Virus record (IMG/VR): IMGVR_UViG_3300021387_000075
Length of the DNA stretch: 64,000 nucleotides
DNA from: a virus
Lineage: Duplodnaviria; Caudoviricetes
Reading direction: 5' to 3' (one strand)
The notes under the pieces were generated by a model. That model searched no databases. It was not told the DNA's origin and saw only the letters and a program-made list of their open reading frames with translations. This document shows, one piece after another, positions 3,683 to 54,597 of this stretch. The stretch's first letter is position 1, and each line of letters opens with the position of its first letter. Both the position numbers and the translations under genes were made by a program.

Positions 3683-3692
3683 GGTGAGATAA

Positions 3693-4965: not shown

Positions 4966-4982
4966 TTTGGGAGGTAACTTTT

Positions 4983-15900: not shown

Positions 15901-18900
15901 CATTAGGTATCAATCTTTCTAAAGGAGCGAGTGATTTAAACAGCGGTATTTAGGATGGCATAAAAGAAGTAGCAAAAGCATAGATTTCTGCTTTAGATGG
16001 CATGATTGCCATGTTAGAACTTATTGTCGCTATGGAATCTTTAGGTGATATAGCCGGAGAAGATATGACCATTGATTTACCTGATATTGTAGTTGATGAT
16101 GATAATGATGGAAAGTTTGATAGATTAACTGATAAATATAAAGATTGGTTGACTAAATTTGATTAGCTATATGAAACTAATGAAGATATTAGAAAAGTAG
16201 TTGATGGCATTAATATCAATGGCATGACTTGGCGTGATTGGTTGAAAAGAGACGCAAAAGAATGGTCTAATGCTGATGCCTAGATTTTAGATGCTTTATA
16301 TTAGGCTGCAATTAGTACTGATTGGAATTTAGATGATATTGGAGGCAGCTTACAGAAACTTCTAAATAGTGGAAAATTTGGAGAATTAACGGATAGCTTT
16401 ACAATTGATATTGGTGATATTACCTATACAATTTCAAATGGAGCCGTAGTTGAAGTAGCTGATTGGAGTAATGAGCAAACTTAGAATGTACTAGCATAGT
16501 ATAAGAAAGCTACAGGAAAAGATGATTAGCATGCAAAACAAGATATAATTTCTGCAATTGAAAGCTATTTAAAAGGTAAAGGTACCGGTAATAAAGATAT
16601 TGAAGTTAAAGATGTTATTAAAATTAAACACTCTTCAGTTATTAAAACAAATAAAGAAGGCAAAGATGTAGTAGTTGTAGATGGTAAAGAATATACAGAA
16701 GGGAGTACTCAGTGGCAAGCTACATTAGAAAAGACTATTCTTAGTGATTAGGATGGAATTGATCCTAAAAATATTCATACTGATTATAAGACAGGAGAAG
16801 CTACAGCAACAGTAACATATGGAATAAAGACTTCAACTAAATTTACTGTAGATGCAGATGCTGATAGTGGAGAAGTAACTTGGAATGTAGCAGCAGATGA
16901 TCCCTTAGCTAAATATGCTGATCCAAATAAGAAATATAGTTCTTAGTCAGAAATATTAAAAGATATTTATAAGAATTTAAATACTGAAGCAACTTCTGGC
17001 AATACGGAAGCATAGGAAATATTAGGAAATGATTCCGGTAGTTTTGAAAAATTTATTTATGCTCATTATGGAATTCACCTTAAAGTTAAGACTGAAGTAT
17101 ATAAAGATGGCAACTAGGTAGAAGATCCCACTAAAGATCCTAAATTTAGAGATGCCGCTAAAAATGCTTTAAATAATATTGAAGATGCCATTAACACAAA
17201 ATTATCAGATAATGGCGAAGGTAAAACTACAATTACATTAGATAATGGATATACTATTCAAGTTGATACGGATGATATTACTGTCGATGGTGACGTTAAA
17301 CCTGAATTGGTAGCAGCTAAAATTCAAGAAAGTATGGGTTTAGACGCAGCTTTAAGAGATACAATTTCTGCCGGTATTAAAGACGCATTTATGTCCTTGC
17401 CCGAAGCCATTAATTCAATCGAACCTACTAAAATTACTTCTGTATCCGAAGCTTTAAATGGCATTACTACAGCACTTAGTGCAGTAGTTGGAGATTCTAA
17501 TTGGGCTGCTTTAATTGCTTAGTTAGAGAATGTAGCTAATGCCGCGGCGAATATTAAATTACCGACTTTTGATGGAAACAATGGACCGGAAACACCTTCA
17601 ACACCGACACCTAGTAGTACTCCTAGTGGTTAGAGCGCTCAGACACCGGTGCCAGGCCCACCCGTGAATATGGGCGAAGCCGAAGGTGCGGCAGATGAAT
17701 CACCCGAAATCGGTGAAAATATTTCATTAGGTTTAGCTGAAGGACTTACTGCAGCACTATCGAGTATTCTTTCCGCAGTTTCAGATATAGCAACTTAGCT
17801 TATTACAACATTAGAAAATTAGACAGGCGTACATTCTCCTTCTACTTTAACTGATGCAATTGGCTAGAATATTGATGCTGGCTTAATACAAGGCTTAGAT
17901 GCATAGTAGGGAGCAATTGTTGAAAAAGGTACAGCTATTGGTACTGCAGTAATTGAAGCTATTAATACAGCCGTTACTGAAGGTATGACAACTTTATCTG
18001 AAGGTATTGCAGAAGCAGTTGAATCTGTTGACAAATCTTATACTGAATTAGAAACAAAGACTGAACAGGTTGCGGGCTCTATTCGTTCACACTGGGAAGC
18101 CTTAGTCAACCAGATTACTGCCGCGGTTACATTAATTCAAGGCTTGGTATAGAGTTTATAGGAAAAGATTTCTATTACTTGGACTATTAGTAGTGGAGAT
18201 GGAAAGACGGATTTATCGGGTTCTGGTAGTGGCATTGATAAGAATGCGGAACGTGAGGTTACTGCCTTAACTGAATATATAGATTAGACATTGGCTTCCA
18301 TGGACAAGCTAGAAAACGGTACCTATAAAGTAACAATGCCTGATCTTCAAGTAAGTGTTGGTAAAATTACTCCTGATGTATCAGCTGCTGAAATGGCTGA
18401 TGTAGATACCTTTGCAGAGCCCTTGACGGTTTAGTTCGCTAAAGCTAAAATTAAAAAATTAGCAGATCCGTTGGATTTAACAACCATTCATGATTTGGGC
18501 TAGTAGTCATTACCCGAAGATGCATTCATGACAATAAGCGATGGTGTAAAAGCTGTTCCGACTAGCTTATCACTTTCTCTTGACGGTGCTTCGAATGTTA
18601 GCATAGATGAGTCTACTCCTGTTGTTCTTAGCGAACCAATTAAAATTCCTGCAGAGGTAGATACAACTGATGCAGAAACTGATATTTCTACTTTAAAGAC
18701 TAAGATTGGAGAAATTAAATAGGAAAGTACGCCTAAAATTTTAGTTGATATAAATCCTGCTATAAGAGTACTTAACGCGCTAATTCGAGCAATTGATAAG
18801 ATTAAGTAGAAAAAGGTTCCTCAAATTACAATTGATACAGCAGTTGCTAAGGCTAATTTAAATGAAATTATTGACATATTAGATACAATTATTGAGAAGG

Positions 18901-21900
18901 CTTAGTCACTAATAATTGCAATTGGTACTGCCGAAGAAACAAATAAAACTTCTAAGTTAATTGAAACAATAATGAATGATCTTATTATCATTGACGATAA
19001 AAAGAATATTCCAATTTCAATTACATTGGGCGATGTTGATGATTTAATAGATAAGTTATAGAAAATTGCAGCGGCATTAAAAGAAATTGCTGGAAATGCT
19101 AATACACCTATTGATATAGGGGCTCCGGAGGAAGAAACACCTAAGGGGAAGGAAGGGGAGACTCCTGAGAGTGAAACACCTGAGGGAGAAAATCCTGATA
19201 CCAATGATTAGAATAATACTAATTAGCATCGTACTCAAAGTGAAGAATTACCTTCTCAATCAGAAGAATCTTCAGAACTAACACCAATAAAGAAAATTAC
19301 AGATGAAAGCGCTGATGCATTTGCAGAAGCAACTAGTAAAGCTGCAGAAGGTTTAGATCAACTTAGTAATGCAGGGAATAATGCCGAAAATGCAATTACA
19401 GATATGACGACTGCTAGCCAAGCTGCAAATGAAACATAGGCAACTACGCCTTAGACTGAAGAAACAGTAGAAAAAGTAACGGCTGAACAAGCGACAACGT
19501 CGACATTAAAAGCAGAAAATGCAGAAGCAGCACAAGCTACCACAAAGACAATTAATGCAGAGTCTGGTACAGCAGACAACGTTACTGCTGAAAGTGTAGA
19601 TACTGGTGGAGAATCGGTCAAACTATAGGCCGAGGTGGATACTTCAGCCGCTAACTTAGAAGGATTAAAGGCTAAATATGAAGCTGAAATTTCAAATTAG
19701 CCAGGCGATATGGACGGACTAACAGCACGTTACACAGCAACAGTTTCGGGCCTGCCACCAGATCATATTGAAGGCACTGTTCATTATAGCGCAACATATG
19801 ATGGTGCTAAAGCTCATGGTAACTTTGGTCTCGCCTCTGGCACTCTTGGTCATATAACCGGTCCTGCTCATGCTCGAAGTACTCTTATGGGCGAGCTTGG
19901 TCCAGAACTTGTAGTATCTAATGGTCGTTACTTCGTAGTTGGTCAAAATGGCGCAGAAATGGTTGACCTAGACAAAGATGCAATTGTCTTCAATCATTTA
20001 CAAACTGAGCAGCTTTTAAAGAATGGGATGTCTAAAGAACGTGGCCGTGCTGTTACCAACGAGCGTAATGCGGTTGCATTTGCTAAAGGTAATATTAGCG
20101 GTGGCCCGGCTATGGCATCTGCATCTGCAGCCCTGTCAGCCTTAAAGCAACTTCGCTCTATGTGGCAATCTCTATTAAGCGCAACTGCAAAAGACCTTGC
20201 TGGTCTCGGTGGATCCGGCGGTGGTGGCGGTGGCGGAAAAGATAAAGGAGGTAAGGGCAGCGATGCTAGCCGTAAATCCTTTATTGAAGACGTTGAACGC
20301 TGGTATAACTTAATGCAAGAAATTGCTAAGTTGGAAAAGGTAATTAATCATGAAGAAACTCTTCGTGCGAAATTAGAGGGCGATTTGCATAAAAATGGTA
20401 GTGCTTATTATAAGAGTTAGAAAGAATCGCTTTCTGCCATTCAGAGTGAGATTAAAGCTCAAGAAGAATTAAATATTTCTCGGCGTGAATACTTTAATCA
20501 GAGGCGCAAGCAGCTAAATAAAGATAATGGACCATTTAATCAACTTTATGAGTTTGATGAACAGGGACAATTAAAGCATAAAAATAATACAAAGATTAAA
20601 GGTTCCAAAGCAACTAGTGGATATGAATTCTTAGCGGACTTAATGGCGCTAGATCCCAATACTGGTAAACCTAAATATACCGTTGAATAGCAATATAAGA
20701 TATTGAAAAAAGCTGGTTTCGAGAAGTATATGAAATATGACTCTTCCGGTAATGAAATTAAGCTTGGTGGAACTGATAGTGATGATGGTCCATCTGAAGA
20801 TGATTACAATACTTATTATAGTAGCATGGTACAGGCTTTTTGGGATCGAGTGGAAGCGCAGAAAACCGAAATGCAAACATTATATGATAGTGTAGCTGAA
20901 GGTGAAAATAATTTACTTGAACTAGAATAGCAGCGCAATGAACTCTTACAAGCCATGTATGACAATTAGAAAGAACTAGAAAATTCAGTTTTAAACGCAA
21001 TTGAGGACATGAAGCAACGTGAAATTGATGCTTTATAGGATGAGCGTGATAAGCTAGAAGAGGCTACTGGCAAGTATATTGAAGGTTTAAGCGAAGCATT
21101 AGATAAAGAGCGTGAGATGTATGATACTCAATAGAATCAAAACGAGCTTGATACCAAGAAACGCCGCTTAGGTATCTTATAGCGGTCAGGCGCGAGCGCA
21201 GAAGATATTTATTCGCTTCAAAAGGAAATTACCGAATCTGAAAAGAATATGTATTTCGATACTCAACAAGCGCAGATTGACGCAATTCAGTAGGCTTCTG
21301 ATTTGGAAATTGAACGCTTGGATAATCAAATTTAGATTATGCAAGACACGCTAGATTTCTAGAAAGAAATGGGATTGCTATGGTATTAGGTTTATGATGT
21401 AATGGGTAAATCTAATGCAGAAATTACTCAGTTTGTAATGGGTAATGATTCATAGTTCTGGAGCAAATCTCCATTAGAAAGTGCCCAAACTTATGAAGAT
21501 ACTATGTTTAAGGCAAGTCAATGGACTGATTTTAGAAAGGATCAAGTAGCTATGGCTACAAATAAGAAAATAGATGAGTAGACTGAAGCATTAAAAGAAG
21601 CTTTATCTTGGGATTAGAAAACTTAGACTGCCGATGCCTTTAATACCTATGCGGGAACAATGGCTAAAAAGCATGGTGAAGATTGGGATAAAACTGGAAA
21701 ATATAAAGATATCTTTGAAAAAACGTTTAAAGACACTGGTGATAGAACTAAGGCCGCAACCGCTGCATCTGAAGCTTTTGAAAAAGATGAAAAGTGGAGA
21801 TAGCGTGAAAAAAATGGTGGTAAGAAATTTATTGGTACTAAGGAATATGAATATATTCCTATTGATGATACTTATCACTGGACTTATAAATATAAGTATT

Positions 21901-22700
21901 AGAAGTATGGCGGCCTAAGTGCTGAGCATTAGGGTAAAACTGAATGGTTCTTTGTTTCTAAGAAAAAAGAAAAGCATGAATGGGAAAAAGGTAAGTGTAA
22001 ATTATGTAAACGTAAAAAGCCGAAGGAAACCGCATCATCTAGCGGTGGCGACAACGACTGGTCACCAAGTAATTGTAATGACAGCTGTTCAGGGGCTTGT
22101 AAGGGCTCTGGAGAAGGTGGAACGGGATGCTCTAAGAATTGCGCGAATGGGTGCAGTGGAGGATGTAAGACGGGATGCTAGAACACATGTACCAATTCAT
22201 GTAAAAACAGTTGTTAGGGTGGTCCTAATGATAAAGATAATCCTTCTAAATATGCTGGTACTAGTAATACATGTAAAGCTGGATGTATAGGAACATGTGC
22301 GGGATATACTGGTTCAAAAGCATCCGGCGGATATGTAGGCCACGGTATTTATGAACTTGGTGAGCGAGGTACAGAAACAGTTCTTACTGCCTAGCAAACC
22401 CGTGTTCTTCGTAATAATATTCTTTCTAATAAACCAAGTTCTCTTGTATCGTTATTAAAAACTTATAACGAGGGCTTCTCAATGAACTAGAGATATGGTG
22501 TATTAAAAAGCGTTGGTGAGAGTATATCCTCTACAACTAATAATACATCTGGAGGAATTACTATTGAAAATGCCACGGTTAATATGAATATCCAAAAGAT
22601 AGCCAATGATTATGATGCTAAGCGCGCTGGCGAACAGGCATTAAATGAAATGCTTCGTATTGCTAATAAAACAAGCGCGGCAAATAACATAAGGAGGTAA
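6999..22700 (+). CDS. Giant tail tape measure protein, about 5,233 aa (TAG-recoded)
   Basis: Twelve track fragments (9537, 9963, 10257, 11331, 12294, 13098, 14295, 15552, 17307, 18528, 19710, 20703) share one frame. The gaps I translated contain only TAG stops (not every gap was checked). TP901-type core at about 8.5-9.4 kb (VKELDATITEIAIVT, LYYQ*GL, ATRESAENIGSAMKSIISRY) and C-terminal GELGPE/GERGTE motifs; ends TAA 22698-22700. Confidence 0.85.
22074..22298 (+). repeat. CxxxC repeat inside the tape measure C-terminal region
   Basis: CNDSCSGACKG...CSKNCANGCSGGCKTGC*NTCTNSCKNSC*GG...TCKAGCIGTC; 14 Cys, mostly every 4th residue. Confidence 0.85.
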
Positions 22701-22708
22701 AAGGAGTA

Positions 22709-24547
22709 ATGGCAGATTATAACGTATTAGTGGGGGAAGAGACGGAACATCCAGTTCCGTTTTCTACCCAAGTTTATAAAGTAACTCATAATGGAAACAA
22801 ACGGCTTCCTTTTTTGAGACGCTCTTTTATTAGTTTTACATACGGCGAGGACGCCTCCGGGCGTCCCGTCCCAATTGAAGACTTTAATCTAATATCAACA
22901 TTTGATGGAGATCGTTTATCTAGACAAGCTTATGCCTCCTTTAATGACCTAACATCAAATTATGATGTTATACATGGGCAATTCTTTTGGGGGAGTTATT
23001 ATACCAATAACTCCCTTACCTTTAAACTTGCAACTGACGAAATGTCTCAGGAGGATTTGGATAGGTTTAAGTATTGGTTTAAAGCAGGGACAGTTCGTGA
23101 GTTAGTCTTAGCCGAACATCCAAATCGCGCTATAATGGCACGTGTAGCATAGCCACCGGAAATAGATTTATTGCCATTTGAAAAGCGTGTAACTGTACAC
23201 CTAAAAGAAAAGGAATTCCAAACTAGTACAACCGTCTATCGCGGCGAAATTACTTTGGAATTAACAATGGATGATCCATTCTGGTATGCGAAATAGAATA
23301 TTTTAGGTATCTAGGATGCTAATGGTAATTATGAAAGTGAGGACTGGGTCGATGCTAACGGCGTACAAACTAGTATTTTAGAATCAGAAGATGCTATTAA
23401 AATTATTTATGAAGATCATATTCCTATTGGCTCTCAAATCAATGTTGGTGTATTCTTGGGCGGTAATCTGTATGCTACACTTATTTATGAACCTTATTCT
23501 CGTGTTGCTACAAAAATTTCAGAGAACGATTACTAGGAGGCCTAGAAAAAAATAACTGGTGATGAAAGATTAAGACGAGCATATTTAGTAGTACCAGAAC
23601 CAGTAATAAATAAAGAGACTGGAGAACAAGAAATTGACCCAGAAACAAATGAGCCCGTAACTTAGCCAGTCTATTATATGGGTGCATATGTAGCTGATGA
23701 AGAAACATGGCAATAGTACGGCGCTTTAGTCGCCGGCGCGCAGGCTGGTCCTTCAAAGAGTGGTGCTTAGGGCATTCCTTTGCCACCTGGAGACAATAAT
23801 CCTGCATATTTATACTATGCTGGAACAGCGCCATCTCCTGTTAAAATGCGTTTTACTCTTAAACCTGAGTTTAATAGTGCTGATTATATAATTACTCCAC
23901 AAAGTAAAATATCTAATCCGGATTAGCCTTATAATACAATTACTCTTGAAGCGACAAATAAGCATGAATTTAAATTTACATTACCTGCTTTTTGGCAAAG
24001 CTATAATTACGTATTATAGATATTTGATAATCGAGATATTATTCGCGTTGGAAACGCTTGGCTTACAGTGCGCGAAACCATTCGTGATACTATTCGTCAT
24101 CCAGCGGTAAGATAGTGGGCGAATTATGTAATAGACCAAAAGGAAAATAATGGAGCAGGTATTATTCTGGAAGAAGATAATATTGAAAGTACAATTACCT
24201 TTTTAAAAGATGGAATGAAGGAAATGCTTATTGAAAATAACAATCCTTATCCTGCTCATTTTACTTTTGACGGTCGTACCGGTGAAGCTATAGGAGAATT
24301 CACTTATAAGACAATTAATGGTAATAAAGAAATTTCCGAAACCACGTCCGTAGAAAATGTCGGAGATATGGTGAAGAGTAGCTACTTAATTTTAGATGAA
24401 AGAAATGTCTTAGATTCCCAGTTCCGCATACAACCATGGAGTGAAAATACTCCACAGTATACATATAAGATTACGCATGATTTGTCTAGAAATGTAGCAG
24501 ACGGACTGGAAGATGTACATTTTGAATTTAAAAATATGTATCTATAA
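22709..24547 (+). CDS. Distal tail (Dit-like) protein, 612 aa (TAG-recoded)
   Basis: Track ORFs 22709 and 24215 are in frame through TAGs. Contains YRGEITLELTMDDPFWY and YAGTAPSP and follows the tape measure. Confidence 0.7.
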
Positions 24548-24570: not shown

Positions 24571-27500
24571 ATGGCTGAGACTTATAATACAATACGCAGC
24601 TATGAAATTTCTATTTGGACGCTTTAGGACAGGTTTTTATCTGTCCTGAAGTGGGCCAATATGAGTTAGAAAGGGCAATTACAAGATCCGGAAATGACTC
24701 TGCGCGATGACGGTACGGAAGAATTAACTTTTACAATTCCGAAGTTTTATTGGAGTGGGCCGGATAAAATTCCAAACCCTATGTGGCTGCAAGTAAAAAA
24801 AGAGCCAATTGAGGCGAATATGCACAAGTTAAAGGTTATCTTTAACAAAAATGATGAAAATGAACGAGTATTTGAATTTTTAGTTGTATCTGTTGATAGC
24901 GGGCACACTAAGGATGAAGTTGATATTTCTGTAAAAGCAGAAGGGTTAGCATTTCATGAACTTGGAAAAGTCGGATATAAGATTTCTTTATCTCAAACTA
25001 ATTACGAACTCGACTTGGAAGAATGGATTAATAATGGAATGAAAGGCCCGAAACCTGAGGAAACAATTTAGTATTGGAATGATAAGCTGTTTGTAGATGC
25101 ACGCGGAAATTAGCGTACTAATTGGACTTATGAAGTACAAATGGATTGGTCTTCATATAGTCAAGGAAATAGCGCATTAAAAGATCCGCATAAGGTATAT
25201 GAGGATGAATATGTATCTTCATGGCAAGTGGATGAAGAAGATGATACTAAATTGCTTCCTAAATATGTAGAAGGCTATAAAGAAAAGTGGCGGCCAATAG
25301 AAGTCTCAGCTAGTAACTTATATAATATTACATAGCAAATTGCTGAACAATTTGGAGTCTTTTGCCGCTATTAGTATGATTATGATGAAAATTATTAGAT
25401 TATTGGAAGACGAGTTATCTATTACAATAATTATATTAAAGATAAAGAAGGACATATAGATTTAACCTATCCTTATTCATCCACTAGTATTACTCGTAGC
25501 GTAGATAATAGTTAGGTAACAACTAAATTATATGTTCAAAATGTTGATAATGATACGATGGGTACTATTTCTATTATGGAAGTAGACGCCAATAAAAGTA
25601 AAGAAGACTATTTGCTTTGCTTTGATTATATGCGTGATGTAGAAGGTGTAAATGAGGATTAGTATGCTGAAATTGCTAAGTATGAAGCATTAATGCATTA
25701 GTATAATGCTAATCTTATTAAGATACAAGAGCGCATTAGGGTAATTAGTGATTAGTTGGTTGAATTAGAGGCTAAGGCTAAAGTATATGAAAATAGTCTT
25801 GTTGAAGATAGTGAGAGAATAAATGAAGCTCACGCTGAATATATGGGCCTAACAGATGGTCAAGGAGAAGTTAAATATGATACGTCTCGTACTGTAATGG
25901 AAGATAAAACATATGGTAAATATGTTAATCTTTATGTTAATGGTGTAATTCCTAATACGATACATTTATATAAAGAAGCTAATTATACAGCTATGAAAGA
26001 TGAAACATAGTATAAAGGCTTTATTGAAGTATTCACTCCTGATTTAGATGAAACTAAGCAATATGCAATTAGATTACGTAATATTTAGTATGCTGGATTA
26101 AATGCAGGTGATACTATTTATTTAAGCGCGAATCGAAGTCCATATTCTTATTATAAAGATTTAGAAACTTTGTGGACGAATCGGGAAGGGATGGACAAAG
26201 CTAATTTGGAAAAAACAAACAAAACAGTAGAGTTATATAATTGGTATTTAACCGGTTCGCGCGTTGGGTATGGCAAGGTTGGATCCGCAGAAGCGGATGG
26301 ATCTTATGAAGGATTAGCTATTACCGCGCCATTTGATGATCTAGAATTATTAAATAATTTTGCCAATACTCATCCGTTTGTAAGTTGGTCAGTAGATCAT
26401 ATGCGCGCAGGTGTTTCTGAAGATACGAACTATGATGTTGATGCGTTTTTAAATCACGATATTTCTTCTATAAGTGCTGATTTATATTATTTCCAAGACT
26501 ATTTCCTTGATTTGAAATCTTTGTTAAGTGATAAGTTTGAGCGCATGATGGGCCCTGCTTTACGCGAAGGCTATTGGCAACCAGATGATTATCACGATTA
26601 TGGAGATATGTATGAATCTACATTTAAATTAAGTGCTGCACCGGAGGAAAATATTGATTCTAATGACTTAAAGGGATTTATTGAAGGTTCTCTAGTACAA
26701 GCATTGGCGCGAGATGAACAATTATCTCCGCATATGCAAGTTATTTGGGATTGCAATAAGTATTATGATAATGAAACCCCGTTAGTCTATGAATCATCTA
26801 TTAGTGGCAGAAAAGATTAGCATTTAATTGTAGATATAAGTGAAAATTTAGATTTTGTAAAAGATCATTTGGATGACTTATGTTTTATTTATAGTGATCG
26901 CTCGTGTGTATAGACTATTTATGATATTCAAGAGAATAAAGTACCAAATTTTGCTCAGTATTTAAAGAGTTTTCATAATGGCATGTATCCAAATACTGAT
27001 AATAGCGCCGCTGAAGCAGAAACTAGTCATGATTATTATAATAAATTAGTACGTTTAATTGGACTTATATCAGATACAGAAGCGGATGAGAAGGCAAATC
27101 TGGTCAGGGAATATTTTAATGCGATAAAAGCATTGAAAACCACGGCAAAAGAAGTACGTGATGGTAATTAGGAATCGGGAAAAGAAGTGCCTGGCTATGG
27201 TTCAACGCCTTATTATATAGTAGATAAGATATTAACATTAGAAGATTTAACTGCACCTGTTGAAACATTAAAGGCGATTATTGAGCGACTTAGCAATATT
27301 AGCAATGAACTAAGTAAATTAGAAGATGCTTATTCTTCGAAGCTCATGAGCGCGAAGACTGATGAAAAAACTTTTATCGAAGCAGAATTAGCGAAAATTC
27401 AAGCTGCACATGAATATTTAGCTTATGTTGATAGTCAAGTTATGTCTGGTTAGAATACAGATATAACTATTGATGATCCCAATTCAGAAAATTATACTAC

Positions 27501-30500
27501 AGGAGATAGAGGCTTATTGACCATTATGCGTCAATACTTAGTATATCTCCAATGGATTGAATCTCTAGAAAAAAACCGTTTCTAGTATTATCAAATAAAT
27601 TCTGGATGTGAACTAGGATGGCTTATTGATACAAATTCCGAATCTACTTCTGACGAACCCAAGATAAAACGTATTCCAGTATTGATTATTACTGGTGCAG
27701 ACGTTTTAGATGATGATACTATTCGCTATTTAGTAAAAGGAGAATATGCGATTTATAATGGAGAAGGACTCTAGCAAGAAACAACCTATTCTAAACCTGT
27801 TGCAGAAAAGTATCGTCCATTCTTCGGATATTATACTACCACTGAATAGAAAGATAGTACTACTGGCTCAACCTATACTGAAAGGATACTTAATTATGGG
27901 CCATCAATTAACGATAGTCAATATATTGGTGCCGGTAATGAAGATTCTTAGTATTTTACTCGTAATTTAACTAAACATTTATATGACACTTTTAAATAGC
28001 CTGATGCTGATGAATATCGTTATCGTCGGGTATACCCTCGTATTTATTTTAATACGCTTAAACTTAAATCTGAATCCTCTGACATTCATTTGAGTATGAA
28101 TGAAAAGTTGTTAGAAGATTTCAAAGACTATTCTCTTGTTCCAGATGATAGATCAAAAGGTCAAAAACTTCAAGGTATTGGCTATTATTTAACCATTAAA
28201 CCGCATTTGCTATTTAAAAATGGTGAAGCAGAAAATGAATTTAAAATAGTATATACTTTATCTAATGCCGATATTTCTATCTATTTGGATGCTTTAAAAG
28301 TCTTGCGCGAAAATGCTTATCCAAAAGTTTCTTATAATGTGGATGTAAGTATTTTAAATCCAAAGTTTATTGCTACGGCTTATGATCGTTTAAATCAAAT
28401 AGTTCATATTAATGATAACGATTTACAGTTAGAAGATGCTAACGGATATATTTCATCAATTACAATGAAATTAGATCATCCATGGGAAGATTAGATAGAG
28501 ATTAAAAATTATGAGACTAAGTTTGAAGACTTATTTACTACAATTGTTGCTTAGACAGAAGCAATGTAGCGTAGTTAGTAGGGCTTGAATAGTGTATTGT
28601 AGGCTTTCTCGCGCACTACTGGCTTACTTGATAAGGACGTATTGGAACGCAGCTTGGTAAGTGCTAACTTAAAATTAAAATTCGATACGGCTGGCCGCGT
28701 AACATCAGATGAAAATGGTATTATGGCTATATCTGAAGATGAGAAAAGCGCAATTGCTTTCCGCCCAGGTGGTATTTTTACAGCGTATGAGCATGATACT
28801 AATGGAGAATGGATTTGGAATACTGGTATTTTACCAACAGGCATTAGCGCGAACTTTATTAGCGGTGGATAGTTAGATATTAATAAGATTAAATTATACG
28901 CTGGTGATTAGTTACGATTCTAGATGAATAGTGATGGCTTGTTTGCTTATAAGTCTTTCTCTACTAATCACGCAAAGAAAGATTTCGCGGTCAAACAAGA
29001 TATAGCAGAAGAAGATATAGCGCCGGAAAAGACAGATTTTAAGCAATATGTAGTCTTTAATTCAGAAGGTTTATTCTTAACCGCGAAGCAAGGTGCGCTA
29101 TATAATACGCAAAAAACTAGTACAAGCGATAATGAAATAAAATATCAATACGCGATAACTGAGAAAGATATCAATCGTGTTGAAATTAGCTGGGATGGTT
29201 TAAAATTACGTAACTGGGCTGGTGAGGAGGTATTCTATGCTGATCCAGATACTGGTAATTTAACCCTTAGCGGCACAGTTAAAGCAGATGGAGGTAACAT
29301 AGCTGGCTGGGAAATTTTAGGTAATGTCTTGTCGGGCGATCATATTAATTTAATTTCTCATACGAGTGATGAGGGTAATGATATAGCGGGCATTGTGCTT
29401 ACTGATCAACCAAAGTTACAAGATACTAAATTAGATCCTTATACTGGGAAAATTTATTTCGTATGTGAATGCTTCATTAATGGAAAAAAGACAACTGTTT
29501 ATTATCCTGATCCAGTTATTGGCTCTTTAAGTGTTAAAGTAAAACAAATATATAAAGACGGTAATGTTGTTGCTTATGTTACTCCCAAGTATATCAAAGC
29601 TGAGACAATAGCTACTGGAAGTAGCACTGAAGTACTTGATAAAGAGACAAAAGACCCTGTAATAACATACGCCGCAGATGCCGAGACTAAGTTATATATT
29701 ATGGCTGATGCGGGTTTAAATTAGTATGTTTATTCAGATAATAAAAAATTAGAGTATGATGGGGATAATACTTTAACTTCTTATTGGTATACACGCATGA
29801 GTAACTAGGAATCATTAATTACAAAAATAACTGTGCCTGCTATTGTGCCATATGATTTAAATAGTGATACCACGGTAGTTTTAACACCAGTCGGTGAATC
29901 AAAAGTAACATTCCAGGTTCAAGCAAGTACTGGTAAAACTATAATTCATAGCGGACAAATTGGCGGTTTTACAATTATGGATGATGCTGTTGGAACATTT
30001 ACTGGTGGTAAAATTGCCAATAGTGAATTTGGAACAGATAATAAAATTAATGGTATTAACTTAAGCTAGTTATTCTATGACGTTACAACTGATTCAACAA
30101 CAGGAATTGTTAGCTTAAAAAGAGTAAATGGTAACAATGTAAATTTTAATATTGCCGCTTTACAAGCTTATAAAGATATGCTAAGTAAAGTGGCATCTAT
30201 TAAAATTAAATTTAAAGTTTCTAGCGATGGTTAATAAAATGGCCAGACCGTATAGTAATATACGGAACAAACATGGTGAACCGGTAAATGCCGGGTGTCG
30301 AATTAACATTTTATTGTAAGAATAGGAAATGATTCTGCATAATTCGGCTAACGGGGAACCCTACGTCTATGGATATGGCAATCCCGTGCCAAGCTTAATT
30401 GAAGGTGTAACGACTATCCAGCTAGGAGTAGGGTTGTGGTGAAATTCCGCAAGCCGAAGCGCCATGCCCCAGAAATGGGTGAAGATATAGTCTGATTCAT

Positions 30501-31016
30501 AAAGAAATTTATGAGAAATTGCAATATTTAACTGCCACAGCGATAAGTGCTGATGGGACCGAATTTAAATAGACAGTATTAGCAGAAGATAATGGTAAAA
30601 GCAAAATAAAAATAAGTAAGTATAAGGGAAAAACATTAAAGTTTACTGCAACAAATGATTATGGTGCAAAGATTACAAAAACATATAAAATTACAGATGA
30701 TAGTACTATAAGCGGATATACAAATGCTTGGACAGAAGGATGCTCTACTTGTGAAGGCCAATGCGGAAAGAACTGCGCTAATGAATGTGCGGGATTATGT
30801 GGAGGTACGTGTAAAGGAGGATGCAAAGGTGGGTGTTCTGGCTGTGGCAATTAGTGTTCCACAGGATGTACTGAATCATGTTCTTCTGGCTGCGATGGAC
30901 AATGTAAAGGAGATTGTGGTTGGGACTGTTCCCATGAGTGTAGCAGCGGTTGTGGAAATAGTTGTCGTCGTGGTTGCGGTAACAATTGTGATAGTTCAGT
31001 TGACAATCATGATTAA
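24571..31016 (+). CDS. Tal-like tail-tip protein, about 2,051 aa after splicing (exons 24571-30231 and 30522-31016; TAG-recoded)
   Basis: ATG 24571 with AGGAGG SD; one frame broken only by TAG up to 30231. Motifs SNLYNIT*QIAEQF, NYETKFEDLF and GISANFISGG*LD. Removing the intron gives the in-frame join KVSSDG|QYLTATAIS, ending TAA 31014-31016. Confidence 0.75.
30232..30521 (+). ncRNA. Group I self-splicing intron (ORF-less, 290 nt)
   Basis: Exon ends UGGU pairing with GCCA (U.G at the 5' splice site). P2 CCGTATA-GTAA-TATACGG; P3 CATGGTG/CGCCATG; P4 CGGGGA/TCCCG; P7 GACTAT/ATAGTC with AAGATATAGTC; P9 TCATAAA-GAAA-TTTATGA; terminal G at 30521. Confidence 0.9.
30741..30989 (+). repeat. CxxxC repeat, 22 Cys in 83 aa, at the C-terminus of the tail-tip protein
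   Basis: CSTCEGQCGKNCANECAGLCGGTCKGGCKGGCSGCGN*CSTGCTESCSSGCDGQCKGDCGWDCSHECSSGCGNSCRRGCGNNC. Confidence 0.9.
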
Positions 31017-31061
31017 AAAAAATAAGCCCGGACTCTTAATGAGTCCGGGCCTTTCTTTTTT
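31015..31061. terminator. Bidirectional terminator between the convergent arms
   Basis: A-run, GCCCGGACTC-TTAAT-GAGTCCGGGC, then T-run. Confidence 0.85.
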
Positions 31062-31446
31062 ATTCAAATTGCAGGAAGGGTTCAAGGAATGACGCTTCAG
31101 CAGGGGTAAATTCTAAGTTTTCAATATCCTCTACAGGAATAGGTTTAGCTTCAATTTCAACTTCTTCCATAATTAGCTTATTGATTTCATCCATGTAAGC
31201 TTGCATATTTTCTTGAGTAAACTGATATTCGTTTTTCTCGTTTAATTCAAATTCTCCATCTTCTTTACGCTTAGCATATTTTTCAATTAGCTTTAGCCGC
31301 GTATCATTGTAAGATGTCAGAACTTCTTCTAGTTTCTTTAACAAGCGTGCTACTTGAAAAGCGGTTCGTCCTTTAAGTACCATTCCGCTCAATTTCTGTA
31401 GTGCTTCTTGTCCTTCTACAACTTCTTTTAATGTAATTTTCATCAT
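31060..31446 (-). CDS. Hypothetical protein (DUF1617-like, tentative)
   Basis: Helical protein MMKITLKEVVEGQEALQKL...; ATG overlaps the resolvase TGA. Confidence 0.6.
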   Translation of the reverse strand: MMKITLKEVVEGQEALQKLSGMVLKGRTAFQVARLLKKLEEVLTSYNDTRLKLIEKYAKRKEDGEFELNEKNEYQFTQENMQAYMDEINKLIMEEVEIEAKPIPVEDIENLEFTPAEASFLEPFLQFE

Positions 31447-32192
31447 ATAACTTCTCCCCAAGTACTATGTACTTTAATTTTATTACAAAAATATTTTCCA
31501 ATACAAATTGCATCAGCTTCGTCTTCGGTGCATTGCATATCATACCATATTCTAACCTTAGCCTATGCTGCTTTCTTGCGTGCTTCACGATGTTGGTCTC
31601 CATCGCCGACGCCGCAATAACTACGCCATTCACTCGGATAGACTAATTCGGAGTCTATACTTGCTTCAAATATAGTATCTAAGATTACACCTTGAAGATT
31701 GGCTAATGTTTGGAATGTTTTGACCTAAGTTTGTGCTTTATTCGGGCCATAGCTTTGTAATTGAATGTTTTCAATACCTACAAAATCCGGCTCCCATTCT
31801 TTAAGTGCAGCTTTAAGCCAATGCTTAACATTGTTAATACGTTCTGTTGTAGGAAGCGCGGCACTTGTTTTAAAAGTACCATATCCTACTAATATCTTAT
31901 CATCATATATAGAATAGCCAGTAATTCCTGTTGCCGCGTCAAGAGCGAGAATACGTGTTATATCCTCGCCCTTGGGCGGCACCTTATTTTTTTTCACCTT
32001 ATACGGATCACCGGCCATGCAAATATCGCACATTTTATGCTTGCGCCACTATTCAAATGTTTGTTGCTACACATGCCCCTACGGGCATTGCATATCAAGT
32101 GGCGTTTTTAAATTCTTATAACTATCGCTTATAAGTTTCCATCCTTCCGCTTCTAAGGCATTTTGGACTGTGTATATATTAATTGATGCCAT
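31443..32192 (-). CDS. RuvC-like Holliday junction resolvase with N-terminal Zn-binding domain (TAG-recoded)
   Basis: ATG 32192 overlaps the dUTPase TAA; five in-frame TAGs. Motifs CP*GH...CDIC, ILALDAATGITGY, VGIENIQ, VYPSEWR and EDEADAICIG; TGA at 31443. Confidence 0.8.
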
Positions 32193-33535: not shown

Positions 33536-34570
33536 TTATCCTCCTGCATTTCGGTTATATCCGAATGTCTGAGTATCAAAAAATTCAATATAATATTTTT
33601 CAAGCTCGGAAAGCTTATCTTTATCACAATAAGTGATTGCTTCGATTGACCAATTCCAGAATCCTGTTTTTAGTATTTCATGATGTACGGCTTGATCTGC
33701 AATACTCTTAATACCAATTGAGGACTTAAAGTGGTCAGTAATTCTTTTCTTTATATCAGTACTTTTTCCGATATAAGCTTTGCCGCTATCCAAATTCGTT
33801 AGCTTATAAATTCCCGGCTCTGCTTTAATTTCTATACGCTTAAAAGTATCATCCAAATTAGGCTTAACATATTCAGCCCAAACCAATTTTGAAATAATAT
33901 CTGGATGTTGTACTTTCGCCGCGACAGTAGTAAGCAAGAATTCAATATCTTCTCGGTATTCCTCAGGTAACTATATAGTATAGAATAACTTTGCCTACTT
34001 ATCCATTTCGTATTGGAGTAAGGGTTTCCGCAAACTTAGAAAGCGTTCGCGCTATTGCTCTTCGGCAATTTGATATTCTTTAACCTTGGCTAGTGATTCT
34101 TCAATTTTGTCAGCCATCCATTTCTTAGTTTCTTCGGCCTACTTATCACATTCTTTCGTAGTTTTTTCTAACTCAGATTCCAGAAATGCTTTTTTTTCGT
34201 TAAACGTTTCATCTAATGCTGCTTGGCGTTTTTCTCGCTATTCATTCATTAAAGAATCTAATTCAGTCATTTTTTCATTTACTAGATGATTATATTCATC
34301 ACGCGCATCCGCTAGGCTTGTTTTTGCGCTATCTAATGAATTATATATATCAGTTAATTTTTGCTATTCTGTATTAACTTTAATTTGTACATCTAGTAAT
34401 TTACTACGATATTGTTCAAGTGCTTCTTTATCAAAGTTTAACTCTTCTTTAAGTTTAACCGCTTGTTCGTGATATTCGTCTAATAACTATGTATCAACCG
34501 ATTGTTTTTGATAGAGTTTATACCCCAGAAATCCAATAATAATTAAGCATAAGATTAAAACTACAACCAT
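33536..34570 (-). CDS. Membrane-anchored coiled-coil GIY-YIG nuclease, 344 aa (TAG-recoded)
   Basis: ATG 34570 with AAGGTGA SD; N-terminal hydrophobic VVVLILCLIIIGFLGY; E/K-rich coiled coil with seven TAGs; C-terminal GIYKLTN...YIGKS...LEKYYI...GYN. Confidence 0.8.
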
Positions 34571-34637: not shown

Positions 34638-34844
34638 TTACATTTCATCTTTTATATATAAGCCACAATGACAAGTTTCTCCAACTTGTACATTATTAAG
34701 AAAATCATAGCACATACATTTATATTCTGATTTGCCCTTGCTTTGATAAATACATGGACAATAGCCATCATTTTCTTTTAAGCCCTGACGAATCATTTCT
34801 ACAATTTCTTTATCTGGATTAATATGTACTTTCATTTTATCCAC
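34638..34844 (-). CDS. Ferredoxin:thioredoxin reductase catalytic-subunit-like protein
   Basis: GYCPC...CMC...CHCGLY cysteine pattern. Confidence 0.75.
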   Translation of the reverse strand: MDKMKVHINPDKEIVEMIRQGLKENDGYCPCIYQSKGKSEYKCMCYDFLNNVQVGETCHCGLYIKDEM

Positions 34845-35311
34845 TCCGCATATTGATTATTTGACGCAAGTTTTACACCAAGAATAGGATCAAACCGTTC
34901 TTCTAAGTTTTGAACATAACGTCCCCATTTAATAATTATATTATGATAATTTCTTATACTTTGTTCAGTAATAAAATCTTCTCCTTGCCCATAACCAGTA
35001 TAAATTATAATAGGATCATTACATTGTTTATCTATACGAATAAATTTGATAAGCTCTATTAAATCCATATAGCTATCAAATGGTTCTAAACCTTGAAAAC
35101 AAAAAGCTTTAGTTAGAGGATTTTGTTTATACATATTCCAAATATACTTGCCACTAACTTCTATATCGGGTTCGGCTGCCAAGCCGCTATTCTGACAGAC
35201 TTGACAGCCATTTAACTTATCACACTTAAAATCACAATATGGGAATTCTATTGTTAAGCAGGGTTCTTTATAATTCGTACAATCATAATCAATTATTCCC
35301 TTTACTTTCAT
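34832..35311 (-). CDS. nrdG: Anaerobic ribonucleotide reductase activating protein
   Basis: CDFKC...CQN, GLEPF, IYTGY, KWGRY and LASNNQ motifs; adjacent to nrdD. Confidence 0.85.
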   Translation of the reverse strand: MKVKGIIDYDCTNYKEPCLTIEFPYCDFKCDKLNGCQVCQNSGLAAEPDIEVSGKYIWNMYKQNPLTKAFCFQGLEPFDSYMDLIELIKFIRIDKQCNDPIIIYTGYGQGEDFITEQSIRNYHNIIIKWGRYVQNLEERFDPILGVKLASNNQYAEWIK

Positions 35312-37223
35312 TATTCATATGCTCCCATTGTCTCATTTTAAATTCTGCTTTACGCTCTTTACTCCAACTTTTAATTGGAGTATAGAAACCAACTATACGC
35401 GTATATTCAGTAACTACATCCCCGCCACAAATAGGGCATTGAGTGCCATAGAAGGCATGATTTTTCGCGCAAGCTTGAATTTTAGTATTAAAGGCAAAAT
35501 ATGTTAATCCTTGGTCAGCAATATAATTAACCGCATTCCAAGCTTTTTCAAAGCTATCAAATGGCGCATCTATATTTAAGTGAGCTATACTGCCGCCATT
35601 ACAATAACTATCAAATAGAGAAGCAATACGAATACGTTCTACCATAGTAGTTTTAATCCCAAGCGGAATAAATTGATTTCCATAAAGTGGCAAGTCTTTT
35701 ACTACTGTGTCTGGATAGAAGAATTCATCAGCAAGCTGCATCTTCGCGGCAGCAGATTCACCGGGAATTTGTTCTACATTAATCTTATAATCTTTATCTG
35801 CGGCAAAAGCGTCTTTTGTTTCATGTAGAACCTGGAAAATGCGCTTACCAAAAGCATCTGCCTTATCGGTATAGAAAACATTTCCCAGTTCGTCTTCGCG
35901 CGTATATCCAAATGTTTTCATTGTCTCATAAATACCTATAATACCTACTGTATTATATAGGTGCTCAAAATCTACGATACCTTTGGAAAAATTAGGAAGC
36001 AGTCCTTTCTCCACATTGCGGCGAATAATATAACGAACGCAATCCAAGGCTTTACAATCTAGTTCTACAATTTCTTTGAGCCTGATTAAATAATCTTCTT
36101 CATTTTCGGCTTCTAATGCTATTCGTGCGAGATTTACCGTAGACACTTTTACGGAACCGACTTTTAGTGCAGTGCCGCCAATACTATTAAAATATCCTAA
36201 ATCTTCAATATTGCTTTTTAGACGGCAGCAATTGCTTAGAGAGTTTACACTATCATCAATAAATAAATTAGAGTCGCTCCAAATACGATTATGTTCGACG
36301 CCCCAGCGCGCGAACTCTTCATCTTGAAATTTACCATCCTTCCGCAACAAAGAAATCGTAAGTACAGGGAAGGTAAACATATTATGTTGGCGTATCTCAG
36401 CGATAGTTTCCATAAAGATTTTTTGGAAATCTTGAATTTCTTTTAAATCATCAATCATATAGGAACCATCAGGAAATTGAGCGCCACCAAATAAAGCTTC
36501 TAGATAAGCCATATCGAATACTGAACAATTAGTAAAAGCAGATTGCATACCATCTCGGACATATGGCTGATTTACAGCATATACAAAACGTTGAATCTGC
36601 TGACGAGCATAATAATCTGAGTCTTTAGTTGCATAACCTGTAGCACAGTCTTTCTTCCAAAAATAATACATATAAGGAATAATATTGGGTAAACCAACAG
36701 CGCCGGAACTACGATTGGCGGCAAAGCTAATAAATTCTTTTACGAAGTCTACAAAAGTACTAAGATGTTGCGGCGGCTCAGCATTGAAATTATTTAAAAA
36801 GAATAGCCCTTTTTCTGCAACATCTTTTAAATCATATGCAAAACAATAATGTACATAAGTACTTGTATCAGCATCATGCATATATAATGCCTTAGTCCAT
36901 TCTTTTTCTAGCCAAAGATTAGCGTCTTTAAAGCCATATCGTTTATTCATTTCATAATATATTTTATTAAACGCTAATAGTTTTCTATGCGGCTTAGGCA
37001 TCTCATTCATTAGAGTACGCATGTCTTTATTCCCTACGTTAGAGTTGCCATCAACAGACGCATCCGCGACTGTATCTTTATCAATAAAGTTATCAATAAA
37101 GTCAGTATAAGAAAGCTGTTTATCACCAAAACCATTTAAATATGCCATTTCTTCGCCATACTTTTCGCTCAAGCGATTGTAAGCAGTTTGAAAATTTTTA
37201 CTTAATCGAACCTTAATATCCAT
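35289..37223 (-). CDS. nrdD: Class III (anaerobic) ribonucleoside-triphosphate reductase
   Basis: YMHD, FTFPV, SNCCRL, EQIPGES, CPICG and the glycyl-radical motif TRIVGF. Confidence 0.93.
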   Translation of the reverse strand: MDIKVRLSKNFQTAYNRLSEKYGEEMAYLNGFGDKQLSYTDFIDNFIDKDTVADASVDGNSNVGNKDMRTLMNEMPKPHRKLLAFNKIYYEMNKRYGFKDANLWLEKEWTKALYMHDADTSTYVHYCFAYDLKDVAEKGLFFLNNFNAEPPQHLSTFVDFVKEFISFAANRSSGAVGLPNIIPYMYYFWKKDCATGYATKDSDYYARQQIQRFVYAVNQPYVRDGMQSAFTNCSVFDMAYLEALFGGAQFPDGSYMIDDLKEIQDFQKIFMETIAEIRQHNMFTFPVLTISLLRKDGKFQDEEFARWGVEHNRIWSDSNLFIDDSVNSLSNCCRLKSNIEDLGYFNSIGGTALKVGSVKVSTVNLARIALEAENEEDYLIRLKEIVELDCKALDCVRYIIRRNVEKGLLPNFSKGIVDFEHLYNTVGIIGIYETMKTFGYTREDELGNVFYTDKADAFGKRIFQVLHETKDAFAADKDYKINVEQIPGESAAAKMQLADEFFYPDTVVKDLPLYGNQFIPLGIKTTMVERIRIASLFDSYCNGGSIAHLNIDAPFDSFEKAWNAVNYIADQGLTYFAFNTKIQACAKNHAFYGTQCPICGGDVVTEYTRIVGFYTPIKSWSKERKAEFKMRQWEHMNNESKGNN

Positions 37224-44943: not shown

Positions 44944-46061
44944 CGTACTCTTATCCTTCCTCTATAAAGTTCCTCAAATACTTCCTTCCCCTTATCATAT
45001 GGAGAATCTTTTTCTTCAAGCAGATTATCCATATCCCATATATAATAAAAAGTTGCCTGACCTGCATACTTGCGGCAGGCCGCTTCAATTCTTTTTCTAT
45101 ATTCACGCGCCTTTTCAGTACGCCAATCTGTATATTCTTTATCAAAGGCAATTGTTATTTCATTCGCGCCTAAAACATTAGTTAGTAAGTTAATTTGATA
45201 TTTATTTATCTTGGAACCACAACAGGCAACTGCATTTGCCCACTGTCCATAATATCCATCATCAAGAAGCACGGACTTTTCGCCTTCTACAATAATTGCG
45301 CTTTGGCGCTTTCTTATTGCTTCTTGGTGTTCATATATGCCATATAAGTTAAAATGTAAAGGATGCACGTATAAAACGCTACCGAGTTGTAAAGGACGAT
45401 ATTTACCGTATTGGTCTGCCTCATCTTTATCTAACGTTCGCGCGCGAATGCCTACTAAATTTCCATCAATATCTAAATGTGGAATTGTTATTTTATTTTG
45501 CGCCAATGAAAAGCCAATATGAAACTTATCCATAATTTCAGGCTTAATACCATCTTTCAACCATAGGGGATGATGATATGGTGGAAAATATGTTAGCATC
45601 GTCTGTGGATATTTTGTTAAGTGTGGAATAGATGAATCAAACTTGTATTTATCCATATTAAAGTCAGAATGATATTTTTTAATACCGCTTACTACTAAAT
45701 GTTTGATACATTTCTTAACATAATCCACGGCTTCTTCAAAACTTACTTTATGATAATTGATTCTCATAAACTTCTGATATAAAGTAAAAATTGACATTGC
45801 CTCATTACACTCAGTATAACAACGAAAGATTTTATTATTCTGATACCAGTATAACTTCATAGATTCGGCTTCTTCAATCGGATTATGACAGATAGTCGGG
45901 CATACTAAATATCCCTTATCTTCATACATCGCAATTTGCTCAACGCCTAGTCCTTCTAAAAATGCCTGTACATCCTCCAAAGTAATTGAATTGATAATGT
46001 CTTGTATGCTGACATCCATCAATTCAAGCTCTTCATCTGCGCCCTGTAGTGTGGTGAGCAT
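44940..46061 (-). CDS. DNA primase (Zn finger + Toprim)
   Basis: CPTICH...CYTEC, IPH...GIRAR, VEGEKS and FDKE; next to the helicase. Confidence 0.85.
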   Translation of the reverse strand: MLTTLQGADEELELMDVSIQDIINSITLEDVQAFLEGLGVEQIAMYEDKGYLVCPTICHNPIEEAESMKLYWYQNNKIFRCYTECNEAMSIFTLYQKFMRINYHKVSFEEAVDYVKKCIKHLVVSGIKKYHSDFNMDKYKFDSSIPHLTKYPQTMLTYFPPYHHPLWLKDGIKPEIMDKFHIGFSLAQNKITIPHLDIDGNLVGIRARTLDKDEADQYGKYRPLQLGSVLYVHPLHFNLYGIYEHQEAIRKRQSAIIVEGEKSVLLDDGYYGQWANAVACCGSKINKYQINLLTNVLGANEITIAFDKEYTDWRTEKAREYRKRIEAACRKYAGQATFYYIWDMDNLLEEKDSPYDKGKEVFEELYRGRIRVR

Positions 46062-53433: not shown

Positions 53434-54597
53434 TTATTTCTCTGGATGTTTATGTTTTATTACTACTCGTGCATATTTTTTCTTGCCATTAACATAAGGA
53501 TAACCTAGATTATATTCAGATTTTTTTGTTGTTGCCATTAATCCAATAAGTTCAAACTGATCTGGATTAAAATAATTAAGAAAAGAAATCGGCACAGCCA
53601 TAAGATCTTCATAATCTTTAGGAATATTAATAGTTTTATCTATATTAATAATGGGTTGATCATCTAAAAAATTATAATCTTCACGTTTATAAAGCGTGTT
53701 GTAATAACTGGCTGTTAATTGTAATGGAGTAGTATGGCGTTCGTTAGGCATATTGGTATACCAACAAATGTTTCCAAAATTAGCTTGAGTTATACCTTCT
53801 TTAGTAGTAGTATTATTTGAAGTATATCCATCTGGCACATAAAAATGATGTACTCCATGAAGTCCGCGCCACATTTTCCCCTCTTTCATTAATGCAAATC
53901 CATATTGATAAGAAGCTACATTTTCATTTCCAATTACTAAGAAATTTTTCTTATATTCGATAATAGGTTCAATAAATTCTTTAAATAAACTAAAGGGCGG
54001 ATTAGTAAATACTATATCGCATTTTTTTAAAATATTGAGACTTTCTTCGGACATAAAACTGCCATCCCCCTCTAAAGGAGTAACTATCACGTCCTGTTCT
54101 CTTACTGGATGTCCATCTTCTGCAGCATGTAATGTGTAGAGCATTGGACATTCGCCATACGACATGGCATACATTGTTTTAATTTTGAAATTATTAAATT
54201 TACGAACAATGAATTGATAAAAATTACTTTCTGGACCGTCATTACAATTTAAGAATACAATTTTATCTTTAAAATATGGTTTATATGGAATTGTTTCAAC
54301 TTCAATATCTTCAAAGCGTGTATAAAATTCATCATTTTTAACTTTTTTTGCTACTAGAAGATTATCATTAGTTGCGCCCTGAGCTTCTAATGTTTCAATA
54401 TTTGGATTAAATGTATATGTTATTGGTTTAGTTTCATGCTTAAATAAATATCCGTTATTAGCTAGTGCAGATAAAGTATTAGCCGCGATTTTAGTTTGCA
54501 TTTTTTCACTCAAACTAGCAGCAGAAAAATCACCTTCTGGAAAAAATTTCTTTATTCCTTCATAAGCTATCATACCTTTTTGTGAAATTTTACTCAT
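53434..54597 (-). CDS. M.EcoRI-family adenine methyltransferase with N-terminal wHTH-like extension
   Basis: KNDEFYT, LNCND, GDGSF, TNPPFS, WYTN and MAVPISF. Confidence 0.85.
   Translation of the reverse strand: MSKISQKGMIAYEGIKKFFPEGDFSAASLSEKMQTKIAANTLSALANNGYLFKHETKPITYTFNPNIETLEAQGATNDNLLVAKKVKNDEFYTRFEDIEVETIPYKPYFKDKIVFLNCNDGPESNFYQFIVRKFNNFKIKTMYAMSYGECPMLYTLHAAEDGHPVREQDVIVTPLEGDGSFMSEESLNILKKCDIVFTNPPFSLFKEFIEPIIEYKKNFLVIGNENVASYQYGFALMKEGKMWRGLHGVHHFYVPDGYTSNNTTTKEGITQANFGNICWYTNMPNERHTTPLQLTASYYNTLYKREDYNFLDDQPIINIDKTINIPKDYEDLMAVPISFLNYFNPDQFELIGLMATTKKSEYNLGYPYVNGKKKYARVVIKHKHPEK

Follow-up and report, generated by a model that had tools for sequence, protein, structure and literature searches.

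Peptides with a cysteine at every fourth residue are the targets of the CXXX-repeat modification system, which was reportedly defined bioinformatically by Haft and Basu in 2011. In NCBIfam the system comprises the target (TIGR04114/PF27846), a radical S-adenosylmethionine (SAM) maturase with a SPASM domain (TIGR04115) and a companion protein (TIGR04116), and it has been catalogued without a known product or role. Here we analyse a 64-kb stretch of viral DNA (IMG/VR record IMGVR_UViG_3300021387_000075; henceforth the window), in which the same four-residue Cys period forms a (CxxxC)n domain, the ladder, at the C-terminus of a predicted tail-tip protein of the Tal type. Relatives of the window phage encode an end-to-end TIGR04115 match together with a TIGR04116-type companion, and we lean, with modest confidence and from sequence comparisons, towards a reading in which the ladder is a tail-tip module on Tal that is enzymatically stapled by thioethers. 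The setting differs from the catalogued one: there, the target is a small precursor encoded beside its enzyme; here, it would be the C-terminal domain of a ~2050-residue virion hub, whose coding sequence lies downstream of an intron, tens of kb away from the maturase gene, in a recoded genome.

Thioether cross-links to Asp/Glu are made by PapB and by QhpD/QhpC, and QhpD provides a precedent for cross-linking a protein subunit. PapB, the ranthipeptide maturase of freyrasin (PMC12373016), comes second among the named families matched by the phage maturases, yet its score of 147 bits is far under the NF047865 cut-off of 340, and the ladder differs from the targets of that system in having no fixed Cys-X3-Asp/Glu motif. 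A precedent for a protein-sized substrate comes from the SPASM radical SAM enzyme CrpC of Methanococcus voltae (TIGR04463 family), which builds ranthionine cross-links into the Cys-rich protein CrpA, whose repeat is 17 residues long and carries C-X-X-Q/D (PMC13692751). Much as is proposed here for the phage ladder, CrpC acts on a large Cys-rich repeat protein rather than on a short peptide, and the Cys residues of CrpA belong to C-terminal repeats that come after a folded or leader-like N-terminal portion. By contrast, CrpC belongs to another maturase family (TIGR04463 reaches just 57-70 bits on the phage enzymes), the CrpA repeat is not a strict CxxxC, and its context is cellular, not viral.

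Self-splicing group I introns are known in phage genes such as T4 td and nrdB, SPbeta bnrdE/F and genes of Twort. Like these, the window intron matches RF00028, pairs U with G at the 5' splice site, has a stop codon immediately downstream of that site and carries an omega G; it differs from them in lying in a virion tail gene at a module boundary, in holding no open reading frame (ORF) and in being far better conserved than the exons around it. The Tal proteins of Gram-positive siphophages (80alpha, SPP1, TP901-1, NF5), which have long C-terminal extensions, likewise share with the window protein the position after the tape measure and distal tail (Dit) genes and an N-terminal hub fold. Unlike them, the window protein has no Pfam or PHROG match for a Tal body and no detected lysin domain, and its C-terminus is the Cys ladder.

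The cysteine ladder and its gene

All readings below use a translation in which TAG encodes Gln, and domain coordinates are those of the + strand of the window. The ladder spans 30741-30989 and comprises 83 residues, of which 22 are Cys, with one internal TAG; it is followed by a short C-terminal tail (DSSVDNHD) and a TAA stop (30990-31016). Nineteen of its 21 Cys-to-Cys spacings are four residues and the other two are three residues. When the 83 residues were shuffled 200,000 times, no shuffle had 19 spacings of four and the best had 11. The Cys-every-fourth pattern and the coordinates given for it in an earlier note, made from the sequence alone, are borne out. The spacers consist chiefly of Gly (20), Ser (10) and Asn (6). 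Across all homologues examined the four-residue period is kept, though the spacers diverge and the Cys count of the ladder ranges from 21 to 55.

The ladder also resembles the catalogued CXXX targets at the level of profiles. The TIGR04114 target-repeat hidden Markov model, a comparison that the earlier note had proposed, scored 25.0 bits on the isolated domain (P0001), above the cut-off of 20, and 17.5 bits, under the cut-off, on the whole of exon 2 (see below). Since this model is short (18 positions) and compositional, and weak if taken alone, the co-occurrence of a maturase weighs more. The ladder further matches phrog_6085 (E 8.4e-5), and homologues carry a precomputed assignment to PF27846 (tSAM_targ_Cxxx_rpt). 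Giant Cys-ladder proteins recovered in the representative search (P0007-P0011) were set aside, as they carry just Listeria-Bacteroides repeats.

Under genetic code table 11 the + strand near the ladder is interrupted by TAG alone. Reading TAG as Gln opens two frames, one at 24571-30231 (1887 codons, 34 TAG) and one from 30483 to the TAA at 31014-31016. In most virion genes of the window, 40-56% of the Gln-type codons are TAG, against ~0 in nearly all of its replication genes; no gene of the window ends in TAG, and all close relatives require the same reading. Exceptions occur on both arms: a RuvC-like gene (31443-32192, 5 TAG) and a GIY-YIG gene (33536-34570, 7 TAG) on the replication arm contain TAG, and the virion-arm genes at 16-1131 and 4983-5972 do not. 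ARAGORN found no tRNA gene over the window, hence no suppressor tRNA within these 64 kb.

The two frames are separated by a predicted group I intron of 290 nt without an ORF (30232-30521, +), recognised by its Rfam match, its conservation and compensatory base pairs. Under sensitive filters RF00028 reaches 56.4 bits, where the gathering score is 50 (E 1.7e-13); under default filters, a search of the whole window at the gathering threshold returned nothing. The copies in relatives L001 and L002 also score above the gathering score (52.8 and 53.6 bits), and the intronless relatives L007 and L012 have no RF00028 match. The P1 helix reads UGGUUA/UGGCCA, with a U.G pair at T30231 and G30521 as the omega G, and an in-frame TAA TAA stands immediately 3' of the 5' splice site. 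RNAalifold paired the terminal exon bases UGGU with an internal GCCA, and compensatory, both-side changes occur at 7 pairs among three distinct intron sequences. The exon-intron layout is shared by relatives L001-L005, with the intron ~95% identical across relatives versus ~50% for the flanking exons (window compared with L001 and L002-L005), and conservation begins and ends exactly between ATGGT and TAAT and between AAAWTG and CAA. These edges, together with the U.G pair and the omega G, place the splice sites at 30231/30232 and 30521/30522. A 3' splice site after G30515 was considered and rejected: that G is not kept in L002, while G30521 is conserved in all copies. The intron would be expected from these features to splice itself in vivo.

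Ligation joins the exons in frame, with ..SSDG followed directly by QYLTATAIS.. (junction peptide ..VSSDG-QYLTATAISADGTEFK), and yields a product of ~2050 residues. A profile search of 1.8 billion representatives recovered two intronless homologues, P0109 (1879 aa) and P0137 (1867 aa), in which a window-type N-terminus (..YEVSIWTLQDRFLS..), the sequence ..SKDG, a beta linker of two repeats and a long CxxxC ladder follow one another in one frame. Exon 1 aligns with P0109 up to its final Gly (..SKDG) with an E-value of 6e-20, and exon 2 aligns immediately after it; the IMG/VR relatives L010, L012 and L016 are likewise uninterrupted across the homologous junction. Because these intronless homologues hold body, linker and ladder in a single open frame, the exon junction is fixed. 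The intron sits at the exact boundary between the Tal body and an exchangeable C-terminal module, which suggests recent intron movement or recombination at this boundary. Both recoding and splicing are thus needed to read the ladder, as the earlier note had held. In relatives, exon 2 does figure in public gene calls, as a small gene of its own.

Fold and synteny support well the assignment of the gene at 24571-31016 to a tail-tip protein of the Tal/gp27-like hub type, and with it the placement of the ladder that had been proposed from the sequence alone. Exon 1 (24571-30231, +), a stretch of 1887 codons that ends in ..SSDG, directly adjoins a 612-aa gene that in turn follows the tape measure gene. 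AlphaFold2 (AF2) modelled Tal residues 1-400 from a 25-row alignment at a predicted local distance difference test (pLDDT) score of 74, and Foldseek matched the model to known structures with probability 1.0 and E-values from 2.4e-7 to 1e-3, though with low TM-scores (~0.3). The best match was the monocin tip 9j1k_L (E 2.4e-7); others were the baseplates of phages 80alpha (6v8i_AE) and phi812 and Listeria gp18 (3gs9), with VgrG, Mu gp44, the Bxb1 tip and NF5 Tal as further fold matches. By sequence, the Tal body has no match in Pfam (Prophage_tail included), PHROG or PDB profiles. From the behaviour of other Tal extensions, the C-terminus would be the distal, host-contacting end.

The first part of exon 2 (30522-30740, +; one TAG) encodes a beta-rich linker domain, identified by translation, AF2 and homologues, that is built from two hairpin-like repeats (..TATAISADGTEFKQT.. 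and ..FTATNDYGAKITKT..); P0109 and P0137 have this two-repeat linker too, after ..SKDG. Structure prediction, also proposed in the earlier note, had a divided outcome: AF2 gave four strands at low confidence for the linker (pLDDT 53-65) and no confident fold for the ladder. In ladder-less relatives (L014, L015, L019-L022 and L027) Tal ends in a different shared module, terminating in ..SRVPCTVYYYP, so that the C-terminus of Tal is an exchangeable cassette. In another relative (G002; L010 16350-16852) a Hint/intein-splicing domain comes after the ladder (Pfam Intein_splicing, 36.2 bits; ..TDG / CFIKGT...VVHN / A). With Ala at position +1 and just nine trailing residues, this domain looks like a C-terminal autoprocessing domain rather than a true intein.

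Radical SAM maturases in relatives

Among 23 IMG/VR relatives of Tal, the ladder is present in just three (L010, L012 and L016). The first of these belongs to a complete genome of 188 kb, G002, whose Tal is 50% identical to that of the window. G002 encodes a 430-aa radical SAM/SPASM protein that matches TIGR04115 over model positions 2-359 of 359 at 336.6 bits, with PapB as the runner-up at 147 bits, and a small companion gene lies upstream. All 21 ladder-pattern matches in G002 fall in the C-terminus of Tal, which leaves Tal as the only candidate CXXX substrate in the 188-kb genome. The maturase gene contains 8 in-frame TAG, which, given the TAG-rich virion genes of the window, fits co-expression of maturase and Tal.

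The other ladder-bearing genomes were rebuilt from pairs of contigs with overlapping ends, each pair from the same metagenome. The ends of G004 and G026 share 130 nt at 99% identity, and those of G008 and G024 coincide on either side (127 nt at 100% and 91 nt at 99%), giving a circle of ~182 kb; each pair represents the halves of a single genome of ~182 kb. Both rebuilt genomes encode the maturase, on the second contig of the pair. A TIGR04115-type maturase with a small companion is therefore present in all three ladder-clade genomes that could be reconstructed, whereas six relatives at least 95% complete lack both the ladder (0/6) and the maturase (0/6). The co-occurrence that the earlier note had suggested looking for was thus found in relatives. 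The companion proteins have no Pfam match, PqqD and the RiPP recognition element (RRE; RiPP, ribosomally synthesised and post-translationally modified peptide) included. Ladder-bearing Tal proteins form one clade (support 100/99) with the window Tal inside it, where the window and L002 are sister to the subclade whose genomes were checked. Extension of the association to the window phage is by this bracketing and would place a maturase in its genome as well.

The maturases of this group are not confined to a single arrangement. In G024 and G025 (L041, L042), two cassettes stand side by side: the first holds a companion and maturase no. 1, the orthologue of that of G002, without an adjacent target, and in the second a companion and maturase no. 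2 are joined by a P0006-type ladder protein of 237 aa. Upstream of these cassettes are a 648-aa fibre-like gene and the gene for a small chitin-binding-like protein. An unrelated contig, L006, which uses the standard code, encodes a 243-aa ladder protein with a different N-terminal domain three genes from a TIGR04115 maturase that scores 368 bits, above the curated cut-off of 350. The L006 maturase (3290-5608) is split by an intein (Hint_2 and LAGLIDADG_3) between its radical SAM core and SPASM domain.

Within the window, the sole radical-SAM-type gene is NrdG-like and encodes a small Fer4_12 protein of 159 aa beside NrdD (the pair at 34832-37223, -). It was rejected as a candidate maturase, being an NrdG-type activase and not a SPASM protein, and no ORF of the window has the radical SAM motif CX3CX2C in a plausible position for a maturase.

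The tape measure and the phage

A second, shorter ladder lies in the tape measure protein (6999-22700, +), which has 5233 codons with 163 in-frame TAG and matches PHROG tape-measure families (best phrog_4211, E 1.8e-31). A six-frame scan and translation located it at 22128-22214 (+), where eight Cys follow at a strict spacing of four, with extra Cys on both flanks forming a Cys-rich patch at about 22068-22298. It lies ~160 residues before the C-terminus of the tape measure and has a 'KNCAN.C' core in common with the Tal ladder. The relatives G008 (45368-45442) and G026 (2018-2182) likewise have a ladder in the tape measure; that of G002 has none. In known siphophages the C-terminus of the tape measure sits inside the tail tip, and the sequences suggest that two tail-tip components carry the same tag. 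By the tape-measure rule of ~0.15 nm per residue, 5233 codons imply a tail of several hundred nm; the tape measures of relatives have ~4700 aa or more (L008).

Between the tape measure and Tal lies the 612-aa gene (22709-24547, +), placed in the Dit position by gene order alone; it is homologous to the Dit-position gene of relatives and has no PHROG match. Downstream of Tal, a GC-rich hairpin read from the sequence (GCCCGGACTC/GAGTCCGGGC, followed by a T-run; 31026-31061) separates the Tal gene from a convergent minus-strand gene (31060-31461) and is likely a terminator. The minus-strand arm encodes the RuvC-like protein, a dUTPase, the GIY-YIG protein, NrdD with its NrdG-like gene, DNA polymerase III (Pol III) alpha, RecJ, DnaB and GyrA/GyrB. 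Pol III alpha and SPbeta YorL share 35% identity, the genomes of relatives measure 130-190 kb, and NrdD with the NrdG-like gene points to an anaerobic host. The phage is a gut-type phage, best read as a large SPbeta-like siphophage of an anaerobe in which TAG is read as Gln in late genes. An EcoRI-like adenine methyltransferase gene adjoins one for a GmrSD_N/HNH nuclease between gyrA and gyrB (53434-55813, -).

Readings of the ladder

The observation of a Cys ladder is confirmed, and its reading as a recoded, spliced part of a tail-tip protein is well supported; the proposal that it is modified in the manner of a RiPP is drawn from comparative genomics only. On that basis the maturase of the ladder relatives probably cross-links a ladder piece. 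For the window phage we infer further that its genome encodes a maturase that acts on Tal, that the chemistry is that of thioethers, that the ladder is distal and that it confers a benefit. The sequence of events could then be as follows. Late in infection, TAG suppression would allow translation of Tal and of the maturase, and the phage maturase and its ~90-residue companion would be expressed late, like the virion genes. The group I intron would be spliced out, joining the ladder to the Tal body, and maturase and companion would turn many of the ladder thiols into intramolecular thioether cross-links, possibly also into links between chains within the Tal trimer. The stapled module would come to lie at the end of a trimeric central fibre and form a rigid, reduction- and protease-proof tip. 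The short ladder of the tape measure may receive the same treatment as that of Tal.

Several points weigh against a stapled ladder. On the side of the substrate, the spacers have no fixed acceptor position, with Asp/Glu/Asn/Gln just modestly enriched at +3, and AF2 of exon 2 from a 9-row alignment put the ladder at a pLDDT of 31-43 (mean 45). On the side of the enzyme, the 64-kb window holds no SPASM maturase, that of G002 falls just below the curated TIGR04115 cut-off (336.6 versus 350 bits), and the 92-aa gene upstream of it gives an end-to-end but weak TIGR04116 match (E 0.02). Full-text literature searches, as far as they reach, returned no characterised member of TIGR04115. As the ladder phages form one clade, the contrast between 3/3 and 0/6 genomes comes near to a single evolutionary event, and the second cassette of G024/G025, with its own ladder protein, means that maturases of this group have other, stand-alone substrates.

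Some of these points also speak for a different account, which we consider unlikely but the strongest of the alternatives: the ladder belongs to Tal yet stays unmodified by any enzyme, serving instead to bind metal (Zn, Fe or Fe-S, in the manner of metallothionein) or to form disulfides after release, while the maturases serve small ladder proteins only. The ladder is indeed very rich in Cys and Gly, the window is without a maturase, the G024/G025 cassette has a ladder protein of its own next to it, and the lack of an autonomous AF2 fold is what would be expected of a metal-dependent region. Such a division of labour between ladders is hard to apply to the complete genome G002, in which the maturase and companion are orphans and Tal carries the only ladder in 188 kb. 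The strict four-residue period, too, fits a radical SAM target model, and a Pfam search of the ladder domain up to an E-value of 10 returned no metallothionein or Fe-S family, a result with which metal binding is still compatible. Disulfides, for their part, are unlikely to be dependable in a phage whose host is, by NrdD and the NrdG-like gene, anaerobic.

A second account places the ladder outside Tal. Exon 2 would mostly be made as a separate 165-aa protein from the start-type codon at the 3' splice site, or splicing would be partial, so that most Tal would end in ..SSDG and the ladder would be free or separately attached, like proteins of the P0006 type. We hold this to be quite improbable. 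The start-type codon, which is TTG in the window and ATG in L001 and L002, does overlap the omega G, but its G is needed there anyway for that role, and no Shine-Dalgarno-like sequence was seen upstream of the TTG. Public gene calls give exon 2 as its own gene, and unspliced exon 1 does end at TAA TAA; against this, the intronless relatives encode the fusion, and the intron is complete in its core features, shows compensatory changes and leaves its exons joined in frame. Finally, although ladder length varies from 21 to 55 Cys among homologues and other relatives have unrelated C-terminal modules at the same position, it is very hard to credit that the period is a compositional or repeat-expansion accident in a low-complexity tail without a role on a modular fibre protein, since the period is kept while the spacers diverge, the ladder recurs in the tape measure and it co-occurs with a dedicated enzyme family.

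We return to the reading in which the ladder on Tal is enzymatically cross-linked. The CXXX-repeat system itself is already catalogued; what is new here is the covalent fusion of a ladder to a tail hub, the intron and the second, short ladder in the tape measure, and literature searches returned no paper on a structural Cys ladder of phages, with the work on CrpC as the nearest experiment and sole related precedent among their results. With the ladder built covalently into the tail hub/tip protein, a gene-fusion type of argument becomes available for the site at which the modified module acts, in a system catalogued without a product or role, and one domain, one enzyme and one companion offer a simple test system. 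In its boldest form, which we regard as tentative and rather doubtful, the proposal would be that phages of anaerobes staple their own virion with a RiPP-type radical SAM enzyme: thioethers would cross-link the C-termini of Tal and the tape measure, both at the tail tip, and might tie the two to each other or bind the three Tal chains together, and the intron and TAG recoding would gate the amount of ladder-bearing Tal. No viral structural protein would have been assigned an enzymatic, RiPP-like covalent maturation before, and the orphan TIGR04115 family would gain its first role. The reading of a cross-linked ladder on Tal would itself, if true, extend RiPP enzymology to megadalton virus particles, explain redox-proof cross-links in phages of strict anaerobes and show that recoding and introns hide such features from routine annotation.

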